Below are positions 2,794 to 45,700 of a stretch of 64,000 nucleotides of DNA, piece after piece. The translations under genes and the position numbers were made by a program. The stretch covers positions 5,456,001-5,520,000 of the forward strand of contig NC_073391.1 of the NCBI RefSeq assembly GCF_028641065.1. The letters run 5' to 3'. This DNA is from Leucoraja erinacea (Eukaryota). Each line of letters starts with the position of its first letter. The stretch's first letter is position 1. Below the pieces are notes generated by a model. It searched no databases and was not told the origin of the DNA. It was given only the letters and a program-made list of their open reading frames with translations.

Positions 2794-4689
2794 TGGAGGA
2801 CCTCTTTACTCCTATATTCACATTTTCATAGAACATTGAACAGTATAGCACAGAAACAAGCCCTTCGACCCCCAATGTCTGTGCCAAACATGTGCCTCTG
2901 CCTGCATTCGATCCACATCCCTGCTTTCCTTGCACATCCATGTCCATCGATCATCATCGGCCACCCTTCCCTAATAATGTTAGTGGAATCTCAAACGTTG
3001 GCCTATTTTCTTCTCATCCATCTCTATGGCCTTTCACATTAGCAAAAACAGAAGAGCTGCTCGAGGAACCCAATGGATCTGACAGCATTTCTGGAGGGAA
3101 ATCAGAGCTGGTTGACATTGCAGGTTGAGATGCTTCATCTACACTGAAAAAGAAGAGGGGAGGTAGCCAATATATTGGGGTATGGGAGGGGGAGGGCAAG
3201 AGCTAACACAATCAGGTGCAGAGGGAACGAAGGGTAAATATGTTTTGTACCTATTCTAGCCACAAGTTCCAGCATCTGTATCTCTTGTGCCTTATTTCAC
3301 CAGGACTGGCTTGCGGAAGTTGACATTAAGTTGACATTGGCAAGAACACATCAGAATTCTTTACGCGCTCTCTGCTTTTCTGCTCTAGAAAATCTTCCAT
3401 GTAGACGTCGGGATTAATAGACTTAGTGAAATCAATAATGTGCTGGTGTATAAGTAGCAGTGTTAAGGGCCTGTCCCACTGTACAAGTTTACCCAAGAGC
3501 TCTCCCGAGTTTAAAAATAAATCAAACTCATCGTAAGTACGTAGAATAGTAAGATTAAACGAGAACTTACCAGTTTGAAGTTTGATCTGTATTTTATGAG
3601 GAGTTACGGTGAGGGATTTCGTGAAGAACCCCGCTTCCACGCATGCGTGTCATTCTTCAAAGCAGCGGTGTGAGGTCACAGGAACCTATAATGATCTAAC
3701 ATAGTAAGATTATCAAAGAGATACCAGTTTTTGATATGATCATAAGAGGGTGGGAGCGGAGGGCACGAAATCCCTCACCGTAACTCCTCATAAAATACAG
3801 ATCAAACTTCAAACTGGTAAGTTCTCGTTTAATCTTACTATTTTACTTCGGAGTCACGTGAGTGACTTCGTGAAGATTTCAAAGCTCTGTGACCTCATGC
3901 CGTGGAACGAGTCCATGCTTCACAACTGCCTTGGGTATTGGGAGAGAGCATCATTAGTAATTTTAAAACACAATTATACAAAGAGTTATGTGGTATAATG
4001 AAAAAATTATATAACATTTTTTTAAATTTGAGAATCATAGCCCTGTAACCTTTCGGGCAATTATTTTGTTGGACATAAAATGTCTTCTTAATACAAATGA
4101 TGGCTCCAAAATTTAACTGGTTTATTATAAAAACCTGTGGAAAAACCCTTTTTGAATGACCATCCTGCCATTCTGAGGATTTGGTCTGTGGGTACCTGTA
4201 CAAATTTTTGCTGCGGATGTTGCTGCAGCCCTGGTGGAATGAGAGTTAAAACATTAGTGTCATTTTTAGGACCTATTTGAGCCACCTAATATAGTTTGAG
4301 TCGTGACCCTTTCATGCGGTTTCTTTTAAGAGATAAACAACTCCATTTTCTGACCTCGAATGTTCTTAGTATATTCCATATATTGTTAGATGTGTCTTGC
4401 TATACACCGTTGTAGTTGAATTATCCCTAGTACCCCATTGATGGGGCCGAACGGGGGAAAAACATCACCCTATGGCTTTGTTACATAACAATGCCAAGCT
4501 GGTTTTAGAATTTTAGTAAATAATCTTGGAGCTAATGATTGCCCCTATTGTAAGCTCTATTGCCAAAGTTCCTCTTTTGAGTCAATGCCTGCCATATAGA
4601 AAACCCCCGTACTGACGGTACTGGTCCCTTGCGGTCGTTGCAGCCGGTCAACCCCACTCTAACGCCCTCAATTCTGGGCACTCCTACTT

Positions 4690-4742
4690 ATATGGTCCTT
4701 AGCTAAGGAACATATAAGACATTAAAACTGATGATAACAGCT
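4690..4742 (-). pseudogene. Second, more diverged U2 snRNA fragment (about nt 40-90)
   Basis: Minus strand ctgttatcatcagttttaatgtcttatatgttccttagctaaggaccatat aligns to U2 stems IIa/IIb and to the adjacent copy. Confidence 0.75.
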
Positions 4743-4754
4743 ATTATAGATTTT

Positions 4755-4850
4755 ATTTAATATATGGTCCCTAGATAAGGGACGTATCAGATATTAAACT
4801 GATAAGAACAGATACTACACTAGGTCTTAGCCAAAAGGCCTAGAAGCGAT
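4755..4850 (-). pseudogene. RNU2: U2 snRNA-derived sequence, nt 1-96, truncated just before the Sm site
   Basis: Minus strand ATCGCTTCTAGGCCTTTTGGCTAAGACCTAGTGTAGTATCTGTTCTTATCAGTTTAATATCTGATACGTCCCTTATCTAGGGACCATATATTAAAT is near-identical to the vertebrate U2 5' half; GTAGTA branch-pairing motif intact. Confidence 0.95.
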
Positions 4851-5007
4851 CATTGTAACTAAAACCCTGGTACTCACATACTGGTCCCTTGTAGTAGATT
4901 GCAGCCAGACAACTGCCAAGTCCTTTGCTGCTGAAAAATGAATTTTCTCACCGTGCTGGAGCGAAGTTGGGCACAGGTGTTTTCCTCCTCCGGGAATCGA
5001 TGTGCCC

Positions 5008-5232
5008 ATGCTGCTCCTGCCGTTGCCAGCTCCTGCCGTTGCCAGCTCCTGCCGCAACCTGCGCTCCTGCAGCTGTCAGTGCTCCTGCAGCTGCCGGCTG
5101 CCACTGCTGCTGCCCGTACTCCTGCAGCTGCCCGCACTCCTGCAGCTGCCCGTACTCCCGCAGCTGCCGGCTGCCACTGCTGCTGCTGCCGACTGCCGAC
5201 TGCCGCTGCTGCTGCTGCCGCTGCCGCTCCTC
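5008..5232. repeat. GC-rich low-complexity/tandem tract (18-bp CTGCAGCTGCCCGTACTC-like units and CTG/CCG runs) inside DIRS copy A
   Basis: Visible tandem units; source of several overlapping spurious ORFs. Confidence 0.8.
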
Positions 5233-6702
5233 CGCGGTTCTCCCGCCGGCCTTCTGCAGCTTACATGGACCCGGTCCATGTCTGCACCTAGAAGGTAAGT
5301 TGAAGGAAACGCAGGGTCTCTTACCTGCTGTTCCCGACTTTCCTTCTCCCGCTGGTGACCGTCGTTCCCTCCGTTGCGGGTTGGAGCCGCTCGGACCAAA
5401 CCCCGGTGTTCACGGGCCTGGTCCTTCGCGGCAGTTCCGCAGCCGGTAACCCCGGCTGTTCCTATCCTGGTGCCTACCTTTTGAAGAAGGTTTTCGTCCC
5501 CAACGTCCCGTTCCGACTCCATAAGTGCCGCTGCACTCGCTGAGCGTTTCGAGCCCCGGTACCGCTGGTCCGTGCTGTCTGTCCCGCAGCCTCTGCGCTG
5601 GCTGCTAGCGACTGGTCCCAAGTCAGTCTCGCTTGAGACTGGCATACGGGACCTCTTTACTTTGCTTCCCGCCCGGCCGAGAGGTGAATTTTGCCGGTGC
5701 GGGAGCAAAGTCGGGCACAGGTTGTTCCCCTCCAGGGAACTCGTGCTGTTGCTGCTGCCGGCTGCTCGCCCTCCACGGGTCTCCCCGCCAGCTTTCCGCA
5801 GCCACCTAAAAGTAAGTAGTAAAAGAGGGAAACGCAGAGTCTCTTACCTGCTGTTCCCGACTTTCAAATTCTCCCGCTTGGGGAACGCCGTTCCCCCTGT
5901 GTGACTCGTTGCAATGCGTGTAGCGATATGACACGCATGCGTGGAAGCGGGGTTCTTCACGAAGTCACTCACGTGACTCCGAAGTAAAATGTACGTAGCG
6001 GGTACGTCAGAGCTCAGGACGCCTCTTAGCAGCTTGTAAGGCTAATGACAGGTACTCGGGAAATGAGGTAAGCTCGGGAAGATTTTTCAACAGTGCGAAG
6101 AGTGTCCACGAGAGTCCCCGAGTACCTACGAACGGCTATTACCGTAATTCTCCGAGGTCTAATCAGGGGAAACTCGAGAGAACTTGTGAATTACCTCGTA
6201 CAGTGGGACAGGGGGCTTAACTGTGGGAGTGGGCTTGCTCTTGGTGTTTGGAATCCTGCTGTTGTCACCATTCGTCTGAGCTGGCCTCAAACAATGACAC
6301 TTGCTCAGGGTTGAGATCGGTTTTAACTTGTAATGAGCTCACACTAATGAGGCTTAACATCTTGTGCAAGATGGCAGCTTTCATTTTAGTTTACTTTATA
6401 TTATCACATGCGCCGTCGGTACAGTGCATAGTTTTTATTGCATGTGATTCAGTCACAGAAAAGACTGTATATGATTACAATCAAGCCACTACAGTGCACA
6501 GATAAAGGATAAAAGGTGCAAGATAAAGTACAATTAAAGATAATTCAAAGATCTTCAATGAGGTAGATGGGAAGTCAAGACTGCACCAACTGGTGAGAGG
6601 ACAGTTCAGTTGCTGATAACAGTTGTGAAGAAACTTTAAAATGGAATGAGATAGGATATTAAAAATGGAATGATATTAGACTATAACATGTTCCATGACT
6701 GA

Positions 6703-35480: not shown

Positions 35481-38400
35481 AATAGTAAGATTAAATGAGA
35501 ACTTACCAGTTTGAAGTTTGATCTGTATTTTATGAGGAGTTACGATGAGGGATTACGTGAAGAACCCGTCCAGCACGCATGCGCAACATACTTCAAAGCA
35601 GCAGTGTGGAATCATAGAAACACACAATAATTGAAATAAACATAGTAAAGACAAGGAGAACTAAGTTATCAGTTGATCTCTATAATTGAGGGTGGGAGCG
35701 GAGGGCACGTAATCCCTCATCGTAAGTCCTCATAAAATACAGATCAAACTTCAAACTGGTAAGTTCTCGTTTAATCTTACTATTTTACTTCGGAGTCACG
35801 TGAGTGACTACGTGAAGATTTTAAAGCTCTGTGATTTCAAACCGTGTAACAGTTCATACTTCACTCGCTGCCGAAGTCATTCGAGGAAGGAAATATGTTA
35901 TCATAATCAACCATGAATCTGTTTGTAAAACAATAATGGTGTTATTAACAATAACAAGACCAAAATGCTCCCCCGGGCTTAAATTATATATTTTTGCAGA
36001 TTCTAATACTTTTTCTGCAAACGATACAGGTTCTGCCAGCGGCTTGTTATAAAAGTTTGGAACGTATACTCCCTAGACCACCCCGCTGTAGCCAGGATGT
36101 GGTCCATAGGCACGTCCATCCTCTTAGTCACCGATGTGGATGCTGCCCTGGTGGAGTAAGATTTATACACGTTAGTATTTACTCCAGCAACTCCCAGTAC
36201 CTGCTTGAGCCACTTGAGATAGTTTGGCTCATCACCCGACCATGAGGTTTCTTGTGGCTGACCCATAAGGCTTTTTCTCTCCCTCAGGGATTTCTTATTG
36301 TGTCGATGTAGTTCAATAAGTGAGTCATGACACATAACCGTGGTTCAGGTGGGTATGCCCGGAATTCCATGACTGGACCTGATGTTCCTGGTCTGCTCTG
36401 TTTGACCAGCCCCTGAATGGTAAATGTGACATGGTCTGGTGTTATAACCATATTGTCCAATCGTAGTAGATGGAGGAACTCGATTCTTTGTGCTGAGACA
36501 AGGCCATCAGCATGACCGTCTTCAGGGTGGGCTGTTCCAGGGTGAGGGACCTGGCTGGTGACCATCCCCTAAGGTACGTCAGGACCACACTGACATCCCA
36601 GATTTGGGTGTCTGGGGGATTAGAGTTGAATATGCCTCTCCTGAATTTGATCACCAGTGGGTGGTACCCTATGGCCTGTTGTCCTGGTGCCTGAGTTAAG
36701 TAGGCTGACAGAGCACTTCTGGCTGTATTGATGGCGCAGTAGCTGAGTCCTTCATTGTGGTGAAGACCTGCCAGGAACTCCAGTACAGGTTTTGTTGTAG
36801 TTGAATATGTAGTTCCTGTATTTGAAACAGTATCTTCCCACTTCTTGATGTTCGCCAAGTATGTTCCCTAGTGGATATGCGATGGGATGCTGTCATCGTG
36901 TCGATAGTGCTGTTTGACAATCCAGGCCCAGCAGTGGTCTTCCCAATTCTGCAACCCAGGCCCAGCAGTGGTCTTTTCAAATCTGCAACCCAGTAGTTTA
37001 ATTTATCGTGGCATGGGTGGCTTATGCCTGAAACTGGGTGAGTTGATAAGTCTGGGCTACTGGGAAAATCATTAGGGTTTTGATGACCATGTCGAGGACC
37101 ACAACTGTGGGTTTAGTCGGGTACTATCAAAATACTTGAAGCAGAGTCCATCTGTATTTTGTGTAGTACCCGACTGATGAGGCCGTAGTACCTGACTGAT
37201 AAGGTAGAAAAGGGGAGAACATAGAGATTAGATAGATCCCCCCCCCCCCCCCCCCAGTTCAGCGGGAATGTATTCATTGCCACTGCCTCAAAGTTTGGTT
37301 TCATGCGACATACATCAGTACGTGGTGATTCAATTGAAATACAAGGAAATCGATATCTGGTGTTCCATATTGCTTTGTAATTTCAGCAAATACTTCAGTC
37401 TGAAGAAGGGTTTCTGCCCGAAACGTTGCCTATTCCCTTCGCTCCATAGATGCTGCTGCACCCGCTGAGTTTCTCCAGCATTTTTGTGTACCTTTGGTTT
37501 AATATGTCTGTTTACAGTATTTAGCTCACCTGGTAAGTAAGTTACTGATGGTCAAATATGTTTGACGACATACGGTTACCAATTGTTAAATAAATTGTCA
37601 CATGATATCGATTTTATTCCGCCCAAGTGGTTTGGTATATGCCACTACTGTGATGTTGTTAATTTATAAACGAACATGCAAAATGGTGCACTACTGAACA
37701 ATATGCTTTTGCCAATAGAACGTACTCAATATTTCCAACTAGGTTTTATGCCCAGTGTCTATAGTGATGACGACTCCAGATTAGTCCATTTGCCACCATG
37801 TTCTGGGTATGGGTTATTTTGTTTAAACACTAGCACCTTAGCTCTAATGGAAAGGTTCAAGTTAAGTAGCTGGTAATGCTGCTACTAATTCCCAATTACT
37901 CTTGCCACTTTGTTGAATGGTTGGTTGATTGTTACCATTAATTGTTACAGGTTGTGCCATACGCTGACTCTCCTTATGGCAATGTTATAGATGAGTGGAT
38001 AGAGTTAATTGAATACCAGATAGTCAATAGTTGTGGATGGTGTCAACGTAGATTTATCTGGATAGTATGACAGAGCCCAGGCTAAATAAGTTTTAGTAGC
38101 TAATGCTGCTGATTTAGCTATTTCCATGGATTTGTCTGTCGTTAATATCATAGAGACATGCCATGACGATATGTTCCTTAATAGTGTCAGGGCTGGTTTG
38201 AATATCTGGAAACAGTTTTGGCTCATATTAGCCATTGTCAATAATTTATACTGCCATAGTTACCCCATCCAGGTAAATTGTGGTATCTCTGAAAATCTTT
38301 TATGAATGGCTACTGAATAGTATGCATCTTTTAAGTCGATGTCTACCATAAAGTATCCTAGGAAATCCATGGTTAGCAGTTACAAGTTTCCATAAAATGT

Positions 38401-40447
38401 GTATACCTGGTGAAAATACTCAAGTGGTTAAGTCAATGATGGTGCGACATTCACCATCTTTGGGTTTTTTGGTACCAAAGGTTCATATTAGGCTTCTTTA
38501 ATAATAATAATACATTTTATTCATGGGCGCCTTTCAAGACTCTCAAGAACACCTTACAAAATTTAGTAAACAGAATACAAAACATGTAAGCGGAATGAAA
38601 CAAAATAAAAAATAACGACAAAAAAAAATAAAAAATAGTAAAGACATCAACAATACACAATTCAAAGACACAATTCAAAGACACAATTCAAAGAGAGAGC
38701 AGCGACAACTAATCATGCCATATATACTTTATGACCCTTTGTATATCTTCTCCAGTTAGCTAGTCCCTCATGTACTTTTTTTTTTTAGTGGGAGGGTATT
38801 TCTTAATTCAATTTTTATCCTTGAATACTTCTGGTATATAACTACCAAGTGTGATAGTTCTTCATGTTTCCAACCCAGGTGTGATTTCCTTTCACCTTTT
38901 ATGTGATGGTAGGAACCATACTTATCTGTCTTCACTGTTGTTTAGTGGTGTGTTCATTTCTTTGGTTTCTGGTTCCTTGTCTGCAGGGATGGTGTTGTTG
39001 GGGGGTGGTGCATTTTCCATGGGGCCCGCTCTGGACCCTGGCCTGAAAAGGCTTACGGGGGTTGGCATGCGGTCCCCGAGCTTTCACCAGTAACATTAAG
39101 TAGACGCCTACTGGTGGACGCGTGGAGGTTCTGCTGTCTGGTTTTGTGTGGTGCTCATTCCAGGCCCTGCCCTCTTGATGCCGAATATCTTGGACACTTC
39201 GTCCAGTTTTTTAGGCTTGGTTTGGTAACCTTGCCAGATAGCAGGATCTGTGGTTGTGAGGTCGGCGTTCTCACAGTCCTGTGAAATTTCTAGGTTGAGG
39301 GCAGGTTTTATGACTTCCTTCGAGAAGTTGCGGAGCATACTGTGAAACAGTAGGGTCAGGTGTTTAGCCATACTACCCTGCCCCTCTGGAATGAGCATGC
39401 GAAAATGATAGCCGACGTCAGGGGTATCAAATGCAATTTAAGATATTTGGGTTTTTTAAATGCCCTGCTCAATGTACCCCCAATAATGGTGGGCACTTTG
39501 AGTAAATGTAATTTAGGGGAGGCGTGATGAAATCCAACGCCTCATGACTACCTGTCTTGGAGAGGTTTTTTGGAAAGAACAGGTAGTAAGCTGGCCGTCA
39601 GTTGAGACTGAAAAGCCATCTCGCTAGTGGTGTAGCCACATAGCGGCCACACCCAGCAGCTCTTCCTGATCCTGTACCTCAAGCATACTCCCAATGTTGT
39701 TCAGCCAGTGACCCCTCTTCTTGACCAGCCCAGCCCTGGTCGCCATCGATCCCTCGATAATGGAGATGGCCAGTGCTGTTAGTGCACTGGAGCAGGAGTG
39801 TTATGCTCCCTTGGCGAGCTTGCCCCAGCTCCCGAGGCAAGTCTCGCTGGAGTTTTTTAATCCATGACCTTACTCTAGGCTTGGCGAACAGACACTTACT
39901 TGCTCTCGGGCGGTAGTTTGAAGTGCCGGTTCCATCTTCTGTGTCTGTCTCCAGCCCGAGGTTTGGTGCTGACTTTGCTGCTAGAGGCTGCCTGCCGTTT
40001 TCGGGCGGCATCTGCGGTTCTCGGGCGGCGAGTCTCCTTGTCGGGAGTATGCAGGGGTTACCGGACGGTTTTTGAGTTTCCCTCCAGTCCGCTGCTGTTG
40101 GTCAGACAGCTGTTAGCAGACTCGGCATTGGCTCAGTACCCTGACTGTGGACCGCAGCGTGTGCGGTCCAGGTGCCGTCTCTCGCCCCCTCCACTGACGG
40201 AACGCTCCTTCACTGGAGTCGAACGGGGGCCACTTCCCTCTGTTCTGCTTTGCTCTCTCCAGTTTCCCCTGGAGCAACAAACTCGAACCTGTGGGTAATT
40301 ACATACCTAACGGTCCATTCTTTCAGGCTTGTAGCAGGAGCGCCTGCACTCCCGTTCGTCGCTGTTGCATCCGCGTGAACACTCAAGTCGCGCATGCATG
40401 CTGGACGGGTTCTTCACGTAGTCACTCACGTGACTCCGAAGTAAAAT
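35481..40447 (-). mobile_element. DIRS retrotransposon copy B, complete ends, degenerate ORFs, with Penelope (~37394-37493) and L2-tail (~38500-38720) insertions
   Basis: ITR and ICR (~35706-35818); YR motifs YSTRAASTS..ILATAGW; RT DLKDAYYS-like; AAT at both junctions. Confidence 0.93.
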
Positions 40448-41165
40448 CAATGTTGTTTCTCCAGTTTGATGTAATTGGAAATTTAGGTTTGTATTAGGTA
40501 GACAAAAATGCTGGAGAAACTCAGTGGGTGAAGCAGCATCTATGGAGTGAAGGAAATAGGCAACGCTTCGGGTTGAAACCCTTCTTCAGACTCTTGTATT
40601 GCTCTTTTTTCTGTGCTGCATGTTTGAAGTTTGTTTTCTTACAATGGCGTATAATAGTAAGATTAAACGAGAACTTACCAGTTTGAAGTTTGATCTGTAT
40701 TTTATGAGGAGTTACGATGAGGGATTATGTGAAGAACCCGTTCAGCACGCATGCGCGGCATACTTCAAAGCAGCGGTGTGGAATCACAGATAGACACAGT
40801 TATTGAAGTAAACATAGTAAAGATAAGGAGACATCAGTTTATGAATTTGACCCATATTATTGAGGGTGGGAGCGGAGGGCACGTAATCCCTCATCGTAAC
40901 TCCTCATAAAATACAGATCAAACTTCAAACTGGTAAGTTCTCGTTTAATCTTACTATTTTACTTCGGAGTCACGTGAGTGATTCCGTGAAGATATCAAAG
41001 CTCTGTGATTTCAAACCATGTAACAGTTATTACTACATCCCTGCCGAAGTCTTTGAGGGAGGAAGTGTGTTATCGTAACCAACCAATGAATCTGTTTGTA
41101 GAAAAACACAATGGTATTTTTTAACAATAACAACAAAGAAATTAAATTGCTCCCCTGGGCTTAAA

Positions 41166-42083
41166 TTAAATATTTGCAGTCTGTAAAATCTTTCCTGCAA
41201 ATAAAACAGGTTTTGCCAACGGCTTATTATAAAATTTCTGAACGGTCTTTCCCCCCCACCATCCTGCTGTAGCCAGGATGTTGTTTATAGGCACGTTCAT
41301 TCTTTTAGCCATCGACGTGGATGCTGCCCTGGTGGAATGAAATTTGTATATGTTCGTTTTTATCCCAGCAGCTTTTAGCACCTGCTTGAGCCATCTCGAA
41401 ATGGCTTGTCACCTGACCATAAGGTTTTTTTATGACTGACCCAGAAGGCTTTTCATCTCCCTCGAATATTTTGGTTGTGTCTATGTAGGATAATAGGGTC
41501 ATGGCACATAACCGTGTTTCTGGCGGGTAAGCCCGGAATTCCACAAATGGATTAGGTGTTCCTGGTCTGCTCTGTTTGATCATTCCCTGGATAACAACAG
41601 AGATCTGGTCTGGAGCTGTGAGCATGGAGTCCAGTCGCAATAGGTGTGGTGACTGGACCCTCTGTACAGCTACAAGTGCCATCAACATGAGTGTTTTGAG
41701 CATAGATGGTTACAGGTTGAGGGATCTGGCTGGTGGCCATCCCCCGAGGTATATCATGACCACACTGACATCCCATATATGGGTGTACCTTGGTTTAGGG
41801 GGTTGGAGTTGTAAATACCCTTCATTAGTTTGATCACCAGCTGGTGGGACCCCATGGCCTGTTGTCCTGGAGCTGGTTTTAAATAGACAGGCAGGGCAAT
41901 TCTAGCTGCGTTGATGGCTCTGTAGCTGAGTCCTTCATCGTGGTGAAGGTTCGCCAGGAATTCCAGTACGTTGGTAAATGTAGCGGTTGAGTAGGTGGTC
42001 CCTGTATCCAAGCAGTACTTCTCCCATTTTTTGATGCTGGACAAGTGCTGTTTTTTAGTGGATGTTCGGAGGGATGCTGACAT
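41166..42083 (-). pseudogene. DIRS tyrosine recombinase remnant (SAM-like N-domain plus catalytic HSTR..AGW..FY)
   Basis: ORF pieces 41754-42083, 41305-41703 and 41166-41381 joined by frameshifts. Confidence 0.9.
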
Positions 42084-42161
42084 GGTGTCGACGGTTTGTT
42101 ATGATAATCCCAGTCCCAGAAGTGGTTTGTGCAGAATCTGCAACCCAGGAGTTTGATTTTT

Positions 42162-42721
42162 TCATGGCACGGGTGGCTTGTGCCCGACACTGGGTGTTAA
42201 CAACTCTGGGCCACTGGGGAATACCATCGGAGTTTCAACCACCATGTCATGGAGTATTGGGAACCATGGCTGTGTAGGCCAGTCGGGTACTATCAAAATA
42301 CCTGAAGCAGAGTTCATTTGTACTGTGCGTAGTCCCCAACTGATGAGGTAGAAGGGAGGAAATGCATAGAAGAAGAATTTCCCCAATCCAGCGCGAACGC
42401 ATCTACCGCTGCTGCCTCAGGGTCTGGTTCCCAAGCGACATACATAGGTACCTGGTGATTTAGCCTTGATGCAAATAAATCGATATATAGCGTGCCATAT
42501 TGCTTAATAACTTTTGTGAAAAGATTTTGGGGTTTTAACATCCATTCGATTTTGTCCTTAAATTTACGTGACCTGGTGTCTGCCACTGTATTTAGCTTAC
42601 CTGGTAGGTAAGTTACTGATAGCCAAATATGTCTTTGGACATACCATTGCCAAATTGTGTTGACCAACTTGTCGCATGATACCGATTTTATGCCGCCCAT
42701 ATGGTTAATGTAGGCCACCAC
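42162..42721 (-). pseudogene. DIRS RNase H end and DNA N6-adenine methyltransferase-like domain remnant
   Basis: IDLFASRLN..VDAFALDW..YAFPPF..LIVPDWPTQPWF motifs typical of the DIRS MT domain. Confidence 0.88.
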
Positions 42722-45700
42722 CGTAGTATTATCTATTTATAACCGTACATGCAAGTGATGCATATTTATGCATATGCTTTTAAACCATAAAAGTCACCCA
42801 ACATCTCTAGATAATTAATGCCCAGTGTAAGTGGTAACGGTGATTCTGGGTTAGTCCTCTACTATATAGTTGCTCCCCAGTCTTGAGCACTGGCATCTGT
42901 TTGGATAACTGACGTAGGGTTAGTGATGATAATAGGCTGAAACTATGTCAAACGTTGATATTACTTCAGTGGGTAACTTCATGAAACGATCATAATGACC
43001 TGTATGTCGTTTTTGGTACAAAGGTCCGAATTATGTAGCCGGAAATGCTGCTACCATTATCCCAATTACTCTGTTACTTGTCGAGTAGTTGGTAGTTTGT
43101 TGACCATTAAATTGTTGCATGATTGTGCCAATTCAACTATGTTGTCTTTTGGCAATGTTACAGTCACGTAGACTGAATTAATTATGAAGCCCAAGTAGTC
43201 CATGATAGTGGATGGCTTCAACTTAGATTTATCTGGATGTAAGATAACCCCAGGGTTTCGAATAACTGTTTGGTAGCTGAACAGCTAACATAGTCAAATT
43301 CATGGTCTTGCCTACCATTTAGGATATCATCAAGATATGCCATGACAATATGTTTTTGTCTTCTGAATATTGCCAGAGCTGGTTTTAGTGTCTGGGTGAC
43401 ACTCTTGGGCTGATGTGAACCCATTGGGTAACGCTTTAAACTGCTATAGATGCCCCATCCAGGTAAATTTCAGGTATCTGCGATGATCCTTGTGAATGGT
43501 ACTAAATAGTAAACATCTTTAAGATGAATGCTTGCCATGAAGTATCCTTTGGAATTTAGTTGTTTGGCAGTAACAACCGGTTCCATTTTGAAATGTATAT
43601 ACTTAACAAACATATTTAGTGAAGTTAAGTCAATGATGATGCGACATCCACTTTTTTTTTTTTTTTGGGTTTAGTGAATATATTTGATACGAATTGCAAG
43701 GGTTCAGGTTTTTCCCATGATACCCTTTGTAATTATTCTCACCAGTTCAGCTTGTCCCTCTTGTTTCTTTAACGGAGAGGGGAAAAAATACCCTCTGGGG
43801 TGAATGTTGAAGTGGTGGCAATTTTTCTAGTATGAATTGTATTTGTATTCACTAATGCCATTGAGTATATAGTGATCACTCGTGATAGACTCCCACGTGT
43901 TAGTATTACTCTATATACTGGTAGGAACCAGACCCACCTACCTCCATGGTTAGGGGTATTCTTCTGTTTCCTTCCGGTCCAACGAGTGTTGCACGTCGTC
44001 TGACGTGGCGGTGACGTTGGGGGGTGGCACATTTTCCATGGTGTCCGCTCTGGGCCCTGGTCTAAAGAAGATTTTCGGTGATGGAATGCGGACCCCGAGC
44101 TTTCATCAGTCTGATATGGTAGACGTTGACTGATGGACGCGATGGGGTGCTGCTGCGTAGGAATTACTGTTTTTGGTTACTCGTCCCGGCCCTGCCCTCA
44201 TGAGCCGAAAATTTTTGTAAAACCTCTTGCATGTCCTTGATATGCTTTGTGAGGTTTTTGCCAAAGAGCAGTGGGTCTGGCTCAGTGGCTGGGGTATGCA
44301 CAACCCCGCAATGTAGCATTTTATGGCAGGTCTTATGACTTGTTTACGAAGGTTGTGGTCTCTCCGTATTTGTCCATGGAACGAGGAAAAAACAATGTGA
44401 TGGCTGTCGTCCGGCTTTTAACGGCCTCCTGCACGTGGGGTTCCACGGTGCTGTCCTCCACACCTAGCAGCTCTTCCTGTTCCTGCACCCCTTGCATACT
44501 CCCGAGATCTTCAGCCATTGCCCCAGTTCTTGACCAGCCCAGTCCTGGTCACCAAAGCTATCCTCTGGAAAGGAGGAAGCAATGGACAGTGCACAAGGCA
44601 CTGTGGAGGGAGTGCCTGACCCTCCTCTGCGAGAGTGCCCCTCCTGGGGTGCACCTCGCTGGAGCTCCTGCGCCAAGAACCGCTCCATGCGACTCATGCG
44701 GCTGTCTCCCCCCCGGACGGGTGGAATGACGTTCCTTCCGATAAGTCGGAGCCACCGGCCGGACGCCTCCGTGGCGTTACTTCCAGCCCGCTGCTCAGGT
44801 GCTAGCGGGGCTGGGCTCAGCACGGTGTCGGGATAGCGGAGCGCCAGGTAAGCGGTCCTACTGCCTTGATGCTGCACCCCCCAGATAGAACGCTCCTCCG
44901 TGGAGTCGAGCGGTTGACAGGTTTGTTGCAGAGCTTTTCTTCTCTGCCGGACAGCAGAAGGCTCCCTGTGAAAGAAAAACCCAACGTCAGCTTACCTGAC
45001 GGTCCGTTCTTTCACCTCCATAGCGGGAGCGCCAGACTCCTGCTGTGCCGCTGTTGCTCTGCTGGAGTAATGCTACGCATGCGTGCTGAACGGGTTCTTC
45101 ATGGAATCACTCACGTGACTCCAAAATAAAATTGTAGTGATTTCTGTGCCAAAAAATAATGCCATAGAATTCCAAACAGATATTTCTTGATTGTGTTGAT
45201 ATTGGGCCTATGTTCTCTTGAATTTGAAAGAATGAGGGGAAAGTTCATTGAGTTATACAAAGTTCTTTCAGGACCTGACAAGGTATATGAAATTCAGATG
45301 AGTTTAGAGATACAGGTCCATTGGCTCACTGAGTCTGTGTCGACCAGCGATCACCCATGCAGTAGTTCTATCCTGCACAGTAGGGACAGATTTACCAAAG
45401 ACAATTAACCTACAAAACTACACGTCTTTGGAATGTGGAAGGAAACCGGATCACCCAGAGAAAACCCACACGGTCACCAAAAGAACGTACAAACCTCTGC
45501 ACAGACAACAGTTAAGATCGAATCCGGACCCTGGTGCTGTAAATCAGCAACTCTACCACTGCACCACCGTGCCGCCCCTAAATGTTGATGTTTCTCCTGA
45601 CATCAACCACATGCACCAATCCCTCTATTCCAGAAGAGGAGAGCAGTAACCCAACGGGTCAGGCAGCATCTCTGCAGAACATGAAGCGGTAATGTTTTTG

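Follow-up and report, generated by a model that had tools for sequence, protein, structure and literature searches.

What does a mobile element gain from a leader in which a splice donor is followed almost at once by a splice acceptor? The question is raised by a 64,000-nt stretch of the Leucoraja erinacea genome (hereafter, the window), where the original prediction placed four very short GT..AG motifs in the leaders of DIRS elements. All four were confirmed on the minus strand, with their lengths, at 5847-5806 (42 nt), 5324-5288 (37 nt), 40306-40269 (38 nt), and 44995-44966 (30 nt). While their positions held, their independence did not: they belong to three leaders, the motif at 5324-5288 being a duplicate of that at 5847-5806. 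Indeed, the two units of element A are 87% identical over 71 nt, which identifies the 37-nt unit as an internal duplicate, and the distance of this unit from the element's left end is 670 nt rather than 140 nt. Likewise, the unit of element B does measure 38 nt and does open with GTATGT, but both traits reflect decay of this single copy (for the length, a deletion) rather than the family form, as its 29 closest relatives carry a unit of 49-56 nt with GTAAGT in nearly all of them. The elements and their relevant parts are as follows.

3545..5990, minus strand: DIRS element A, a non-autonomous, internally deleted copy (family 4.6-5.1 kb)
5928..5990, minus strand: left terminus of A (inverted terminal repeat), with CACGTG and GCATGCG motifs
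5880..5897, minus strand: predicted G+C-rich hairpin in the leader exon of A, 5' of the donor (single-sequence folds)
5806..5847, minus strand: first donor-acceptor unit of A, 42 nt, CAG/GTAAGA..TTTTAG, without an ATG behind it
5288..5324, minus strand: second (duplicated) unit of A, 37 nt, with the ancestral gag ATG kept at 5279-5277
4683..4850, minus strand: U2 snRNA captured by A, the 5' half matching well (Rfam RF00004, 106 bits)
3750..3869, minus strand: internal complementary region of A
35482..40447, minus strand: DIRS element B, decayed, from a family without gag ATG
40269..40306, minus strand: 38-nt donor-acceptor unit of B (49-56 nt in relatives); the family donor lies within the palindrome GGTAAGTACTTACC
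40653..45132, minus strand: DIRS element C, decayed, from a family without gag ATG
44966..44995, minus strand: donor-acceptor unit of C, 30 nt, and 18-33 nt among the family members listed
43937..43949, minus strand: pol start codon of C with a second donor-like site, ATGGAG/GTAGGT
42138..42149, minus strand: acceptor-like site of C ahead of the recombinase frame; in relatives it shares the frame of the second donor

Inverted termini, a right extension, and an internal complementary region are all present in A, B, and C. The coding frames of these copies are decayed, and the domain matches come from a family relative with open frames, which yielded PF00078 (RVT_1, E 7e-18) and PF00589 (Phage_integrase, E 8e-8); its first, gag-like frame had no Pfam match, and a search for a methyltransferase domain behind RNase H gave no Pfam match at E 0.001 in its 644-aa frame. 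Together with a repeat layout as in PMC3266345, the two matches classify A, B, and C as DIRS1-like. The left terminus of A, judged by its CACGTG and GCATGCG motifs, is likely a promoter; the motifs are a putative E-box and a putative NRF1 site. C and B stand head to tail, ~200 bp apart (40653-40447), with a short repeat between them. In the right extensions (3577-3545, 35513-35482, and 40685-40653), a GTAAG..CTTAC inverted pair adjoins the circle junction, and a strong donor-like CTG/GTAAGT occurs in every copy displayed. Elsewhere in the window, the minus strand of 29499-27000 holds open frames of 157 aa and 673 aa, which by motif presumably represent a non-LTR retrotransposon reverse transcriptase.

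By itself, the window is weak evidence against chance: it contains 18 donor-like sites, and of the 14 beyond the four motifs, 2 have, like them, a good acceptor no more than 80 nt away. The genome-wide evidence is strong. The 2.19-Gb genome harbors 3,447 exact DIRS left ends, and we took as a sample the first 51 of contig C1, selected by terminal repeat alone. The donor was present in 48 of them, the exceptions being two point mutants and one diverged leader. When these leaders were sorted into 24 types (omitting L137, L149, and L159, which are cut by deletion or insertion), with a median pairwise identity of 0.51, AG/GTAAG was found at 128-150 nt from the left end in 23. A pyrimidine tract plus YAG scoring at least 8 of 12 followed in 21 of the 23 donor-bearing types, where dinucleotide shuffles expect 0.2, a comparison to be read knowing that leader types share descent and are not independent draws, that the best-scoring YAG was chosen as the acceptor, and that this rule picks a doubtful AG in L134, L141, L144, and L181. 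Splice signals at a conserved position, as originally proposed for the window, are thus borne out in most of the 24 types, with the consensus donor and tract-plus-YAG acceptor of U2-type introns.

The interior of the unit is free to vary. Spacing between donor and acceptor ranges from 21 to 70 nt across leader types, the middle having been deleted repeatedly while both ends stayed invariant. The lengths also bear out the claim that these units fall under the usual vertebrate intron minimum: besides an 81-nt form with a duplicated donor, all types but one (70 nt) measure 21-61 nt, below a vertebrate floor (~65 nt, with the branch point ~50 nt from the donor) that derives from human and other studies and not from this genome. 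For comparison, ~50 nt has been given as the steric limit between 5' splice site and branch point (PMC7969005), human introns show a threshold of 65 nt with the shortest spliced at 43 nt (PMC4463651), and introns of <30 nt are held not to occur in animals, two parasite groups excepted (PMC13644364). Branch-like CTAAC/CTTAAC motifs, such as real introns possess, are present in the families of 55-70 nt.

In leader types that retain the start codon, the gag ATG lies 2-19 nt behind the AG, so that gag is readable from unspliced RNA and splicing is unneeded. In a clade of seven leaders that lack gag, no stretch without variation is longer than those at the donor (15 columns) and the acceptor (10 columns). 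Maintenance of both sites in this clade points to selection in cis, on the RNA. Upstream of the donor, single-sequence folds predict a G+C hairpin in nearly all of the 23 leader types; in the window, such hairpins are predicted at 5897-5880, 40353-40335, and 45044-45022, with sequences that differ between families. Folding of the aligned leader exons gave no consensus structure and no covariation support for the hairpin. The idea that the donor is always locked in a hairpin was rejected, as its pairing ranged from 0.05 to 1.0 and CTTAC occurred in only 10 of the 26 leaders folded.

DIRS elements are copied through RNA, and a segment routinely removed from that RNA should be missing from genomic copies. 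Indeed, spliced marker RNA of Dictyostelium DIRS-1 is copied and integrated (PMC7192593), so efficient splicing should yield many intron-less copies. We therefore counted, with exact-flank patterns over the whole genome, matches that kept or had lost the piece. Copies lacking exactly the segment do exist, but they amount to 4 exact losses (three insertions) versus 2,099 matches that retain it. None were lost for the first unit of A (186 kept), the unit of the B family (54 kept), that of the C family (342 kept, plus one 18-nt variant with both ends preserved), the coding families with 22-24 nt, which outnumber all other coding families counted (667 kept), or the 55-57 nt coding family (47 kept). 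All losses fell in the unit type to which the second site of A belongs (802 kept, five partial deletions, and four exact losses). The prediction that these motifs could be ultra-short introns, if meant as routine excision, finds no support, given the absence of exact losses among 186, 54, 343, 667, and 47 matches and of any skip joint listed in eight RNA data sets, although rare excision may occur.

The exact losses come from two subfamilies, two of the four matches sharing flanks. Both subfamilies include the tandem form, carried by 77 copies, in which the duplicated donor lies 81 nt from the acceptor, and the copies with the loss bear the flank of the first donor. Among the tandem copies listed, GT was missing from the far donor in 18 of 77 (14 by one shared change, probably a single event) and from the near donor in 3 of 77. 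The 60 nearest relatives of the exact-loss copies included 22 tandem and 30 single forms; a tree of 59 of them (one locus was dropped, and bootstrap values were unsettled) did not place the parents of the losses. Donor and acceptor share AGGT or CAGGT, and a microhomology deletion over these 4-5 nt would thus yield a product identical to that of splicing; the five partial deletions occur beside the exact losses. No exact loss was found in the GTGC variant, which makes up 35 of the first 100 copies listed and includes the second unit of A, with another donor ~560 nt upstream.

The eight RNA data sets comprised four runs mapped to a coding-family copy, and three runs plus one contig set mapped to positions 5190-5925 of the window. 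On the coding-family copy, 87 reads covered a base inside the 22-nt piece (place 421), and none of the seven joints listed was of the GT-AG type. On the window segment, the 42-nt piece was covered at an internal base (place 5825) by 19 reads and one contig, and the rows listed contained no skip joint. Depth was low (~10 reads per run for A), and rare skips may hide at this coverage or beyond the rows listed. Furthermore, 23-67% of the mapped reads extend into other sequence, and they do so on both strands; the majority of the reads thus probably come from host pre-mRNA, which limits the negative result.

On the other hand, junction reads do use one of the two sites. In run X14, five reads switch to foreign sequence precisely at 5848, where the exon has its last base (agreement 0.71), and 20 letters of their foreign consensus have a single genomic match, directly behind T12-CCTTCCAG. 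The leader donor is thus used in RNA, joined to a far host acceptor: the receiving host exon (G000:C27:27704013; L201:1501) stands behind a strong acceptor. No family-A copy that could be the source was found in the 300 kb upstream in this assembly, and the element 1.3 kb upstream of the exon belongs to another DIRS family with a different leader. Both sites are usable, the donor in RNA and the exact donor-acceptor junction in three genomic insertions. No loose ends were seen at either acceptor of A among those listed for 5190-5925. Of the back- or trans-splicing also suggested for the motif, neither was seen among the joints listed in the four runs on the coding-family copy; trans-splicing may nonetheless occur, the source copy of the chimeric reads not having been found. 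Separately, in run X12 on L162, 11 and 3 reads, with joints 4961-343 and 4965-338, connect the base of the right terminal repeat back to approximately element position 71-76, and in run X17, 13 molecules begin at 334, a pattern that possibly reflects a transcription start plus a template jump across the panhandle.

The original prediction had also envisaged a switch between gag and the downstream frames. It finds no support, since a junction from leader to recombinase is absent both from the RNA joints listed in the four runs and from the genome. Instead, pol and recombinase have other apparent routes to expression, so the leader donor is unneeded to explain these frames. Near the gag end, 27 of 46 copies examined have a TTTTTTA, a candidate ribosomal frameshift site for Gag-Pol by its position and phase: it stands in −1 phase with the open pol frame in 17 of the 27, over nine spacings, and an out-of-frame ATG follows 3 nt behind it in three families. 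The corresponding sites in the window (44073-44062 and 39052-39037) are decayed, and clear examples are provided by L190, L163, and L191. For the recombinase, the phase of the acceptor agrees, in 13 of 13 relatives, with that of the second donor at the start of pol, and residues upstream of the first ATG are conserved; no junction reads between this donor and acceptor were listed in the four runs on the coding-family copy. An AATAAA comes directly after the recombinase stop, before the internal complementary region (~4345 in L190, and likewise in L163 and L191); genomic RNA must read through it, and RNA depth drops there.

How, then, might a pair that is kept but hardly ever joined be of use? 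We consider it an evenly balanced proposition that the too-close donor and acceptor form a non-productive splice-signal pair that protects full-length RNA. U1 and the 3'-site factors would bind the leader pair, the spacing would fall under the steric limit, and catalysis could not finish; the near acceptor would then cap the donor against far acceptors, and the piece would stay uncut, leaving full-length RNA to survive for copying. Abortive complexes are known to keep Rous sarcoma virus (RSV) RNA unspliced (PMC3082916). The proposal builds on ends that are conserved although the distance between them is free, on the persistence of the piece both in genomic copies and in the reads, and on the joining of the donor to a distant host acceptor; junctions that link donor and acceptor exactly occur only in the clade having the 81-nt form. 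The cap by the near acceptor is leaky, as the donor did splice to a host exon. U1 bound close to the cap has effects of its own, and in these leaders it may aid transcription or block early 3'-end cleavage.

A rather unlikely but serious competitor is a genuine, inefficient 5'UTR intron like that of Penelope, spliced for translation while the unspliced RNA is usually the one copied and copies that lose the intron do not spread. Textbook 5' and 3' site profiles would suit it, as would the branch-like motifs and 55-70 nt lengths of some coding families and the four exact-loss matches, and Penelope does retain a 75-bp leader intron required for expression (PMC2377424). However, units of 21-31 nt in several independent lineages would have to be spliced against an animal floor of ~30 nt (PMC13644364), five families, the 55-57 nt one included, show no exact loss where the integration of spliced marker RNA by Dictyostelium DIRS-1 (PMC7192593) leads one to expect many, and no skip joint was listed in the eight RNA data sets. 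We regard as improbable that the site is a retrovirus-like major donor making subgenomic pol and recombinase RNAs, which the near acceptor turns off for gag. Although acceptor-like sites do precede pol (TTTTTTAG) and the recombinase frame, with the first ATG of the latter in frame in all of 13 copies, and the X14 reads attest that the donor functions in vivo, no such joint was listed in the four runs on the whole coding-family copy and no genomic junction was found; the TTTTTTA data (−1 phase in 17 of 27, nine spacings, out-of-frame ATG in three families) fit a frameshift, the acceptor ahead of the recombinase matches the frame of the second donor, that of the pol start, and the pair is retained in lineages that lack gag.

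The two sites might, still more improbably, serve different partners, with the acceptor receiving upstream donors (from host transcripts, from the right extension on circles or tandems, or by trans-splicing) and the donor feeding chimeric transcripts. Chimeric reads for which the 300 kb upstream in this assembly yielded no source copy, and the CTG/GTAAGT in the right extension of every copy displayed, agree with such a role; yet a polymorphic young insertion is a simple account of the missing source, no loose ends at acceptors and no back-joints at splice sites were listed, and RNAs of this kind would have no 5' end and be uncopyable, so that lineages without gag would lose the site. Finally, it is hard to credit that the motif serves element proteins as a signal for binding or packaging and merely looks like splice sites: some leaders, and the terminal extension as well, do have GTAAG..CTTAC inverted pairs, but CTTAC is missing from 16 of the 26 leaders folded, donor pairing spans 0.05-1.0, the profile fits U1 pairing and the 3' site consensus, and both sites yield exact junctions. 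Collectively, the donor-acceptor pair is real, and the protective mechanism that we favor is unproven.

The U2 piece is family-wide cargo, found in 28 of 29 family-A copies ~440 nt downstream of the motif, and its capture may be linked to the leader pair. Vertebrate DIRS elements might park an early spliceosome on the leader and carry U1 and U2 into the replication particle, which would explain repeated capture of spliceosomal snRNAs (U2 in A); we think this extension unlikely. Frames are decayed in all 27 longer family-A copies examined (L091-L097 and L111-L130), and with copies 98-99.5% alike this indicates that family A spread recently in trans, its U2 cargo along with it.

DIRS gene expression and the maintenance of full-length RNA have barely been studied outside Dictyostelium. 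If the protective role is true, a pair too short to splice would give a retroelement a compact means, as yet undescribed, of exploiting the spliceosome while staying uncut; were the units instead inefficient Penelope-like introns, they would be the shortest vertebrate introns known. In addition, the minimum intron size of a vertebrate could be tested on the natural series of lengths in this genome, which runs from 18 to 81 nt between the same ends, and each of thousands of copies can, through its donor, launch chimeric host transcripts.

With published DIRS1-like elements (PMC3266345, PMC9210276, and PMC7192593), those described here share inverted termini, a right extension, an internal complementary region, gag, RT, and recombinase frames, and NTT ends. 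Neither 'intron' nor 'splic' appears in the main text of PMC3266345 or of PMC9210276, and the splicing reported for Dictyostelium DIRS-1 in the accessible part of PMC7192593 concerns an artificial marker intron. The openly available articles searched gave no account of splice signals or introns in DIRS leaders; older DIRS reviews may have one. The 5' leader intron of Penelope resembles the DIRS unit in being a short GT-AG unit ~50-70 nt behind the RNA start that survives retrotransposition and has ends conserved between diverged elements (PMC2377424), and the DIRS unit is likewise kept in genomic copies (2,099 versus 4). The Penelope intron, however, measures 75 bp, resides in a fly, and is spliced from most transcripts, whereas the DIRS units span 21-70 nt, belong to a vertebrate, and show no excision in the RNA joints listed (PMC2377424 for Penelope): 87 and 19 reads hold the piece, many of them probably host pre-mRNA. 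Retroviruses offer a second likeness, having a stem-loop upstream of the donor where DIRS leaders have a predicted G+C hairpin, and the mode proposed for DIRS is similar to donor attenuation in MLV (PMC2794156). The negative splicing regulator (NRS) of RSV also employs splice signals to restrain splicing and keep genomic RNA (PMC3082916), but it is a degenerate decoy donor inside gag, while the DIRS donor is a perfect consensus, blocked, as we infer, by an acceptor too near. In the mutually exclusive exons of OGDH and Tpm1, the donor and 3' signals are too close for joint U1/U2 assembly, as we propose for DIRS; in those host genes, however, the branch point is close by, with the acceptor at a distance (PMC7969005), whereas in the DIRS leaders the whole 3' site is near, within a mobile element that has no alternative exon pair.
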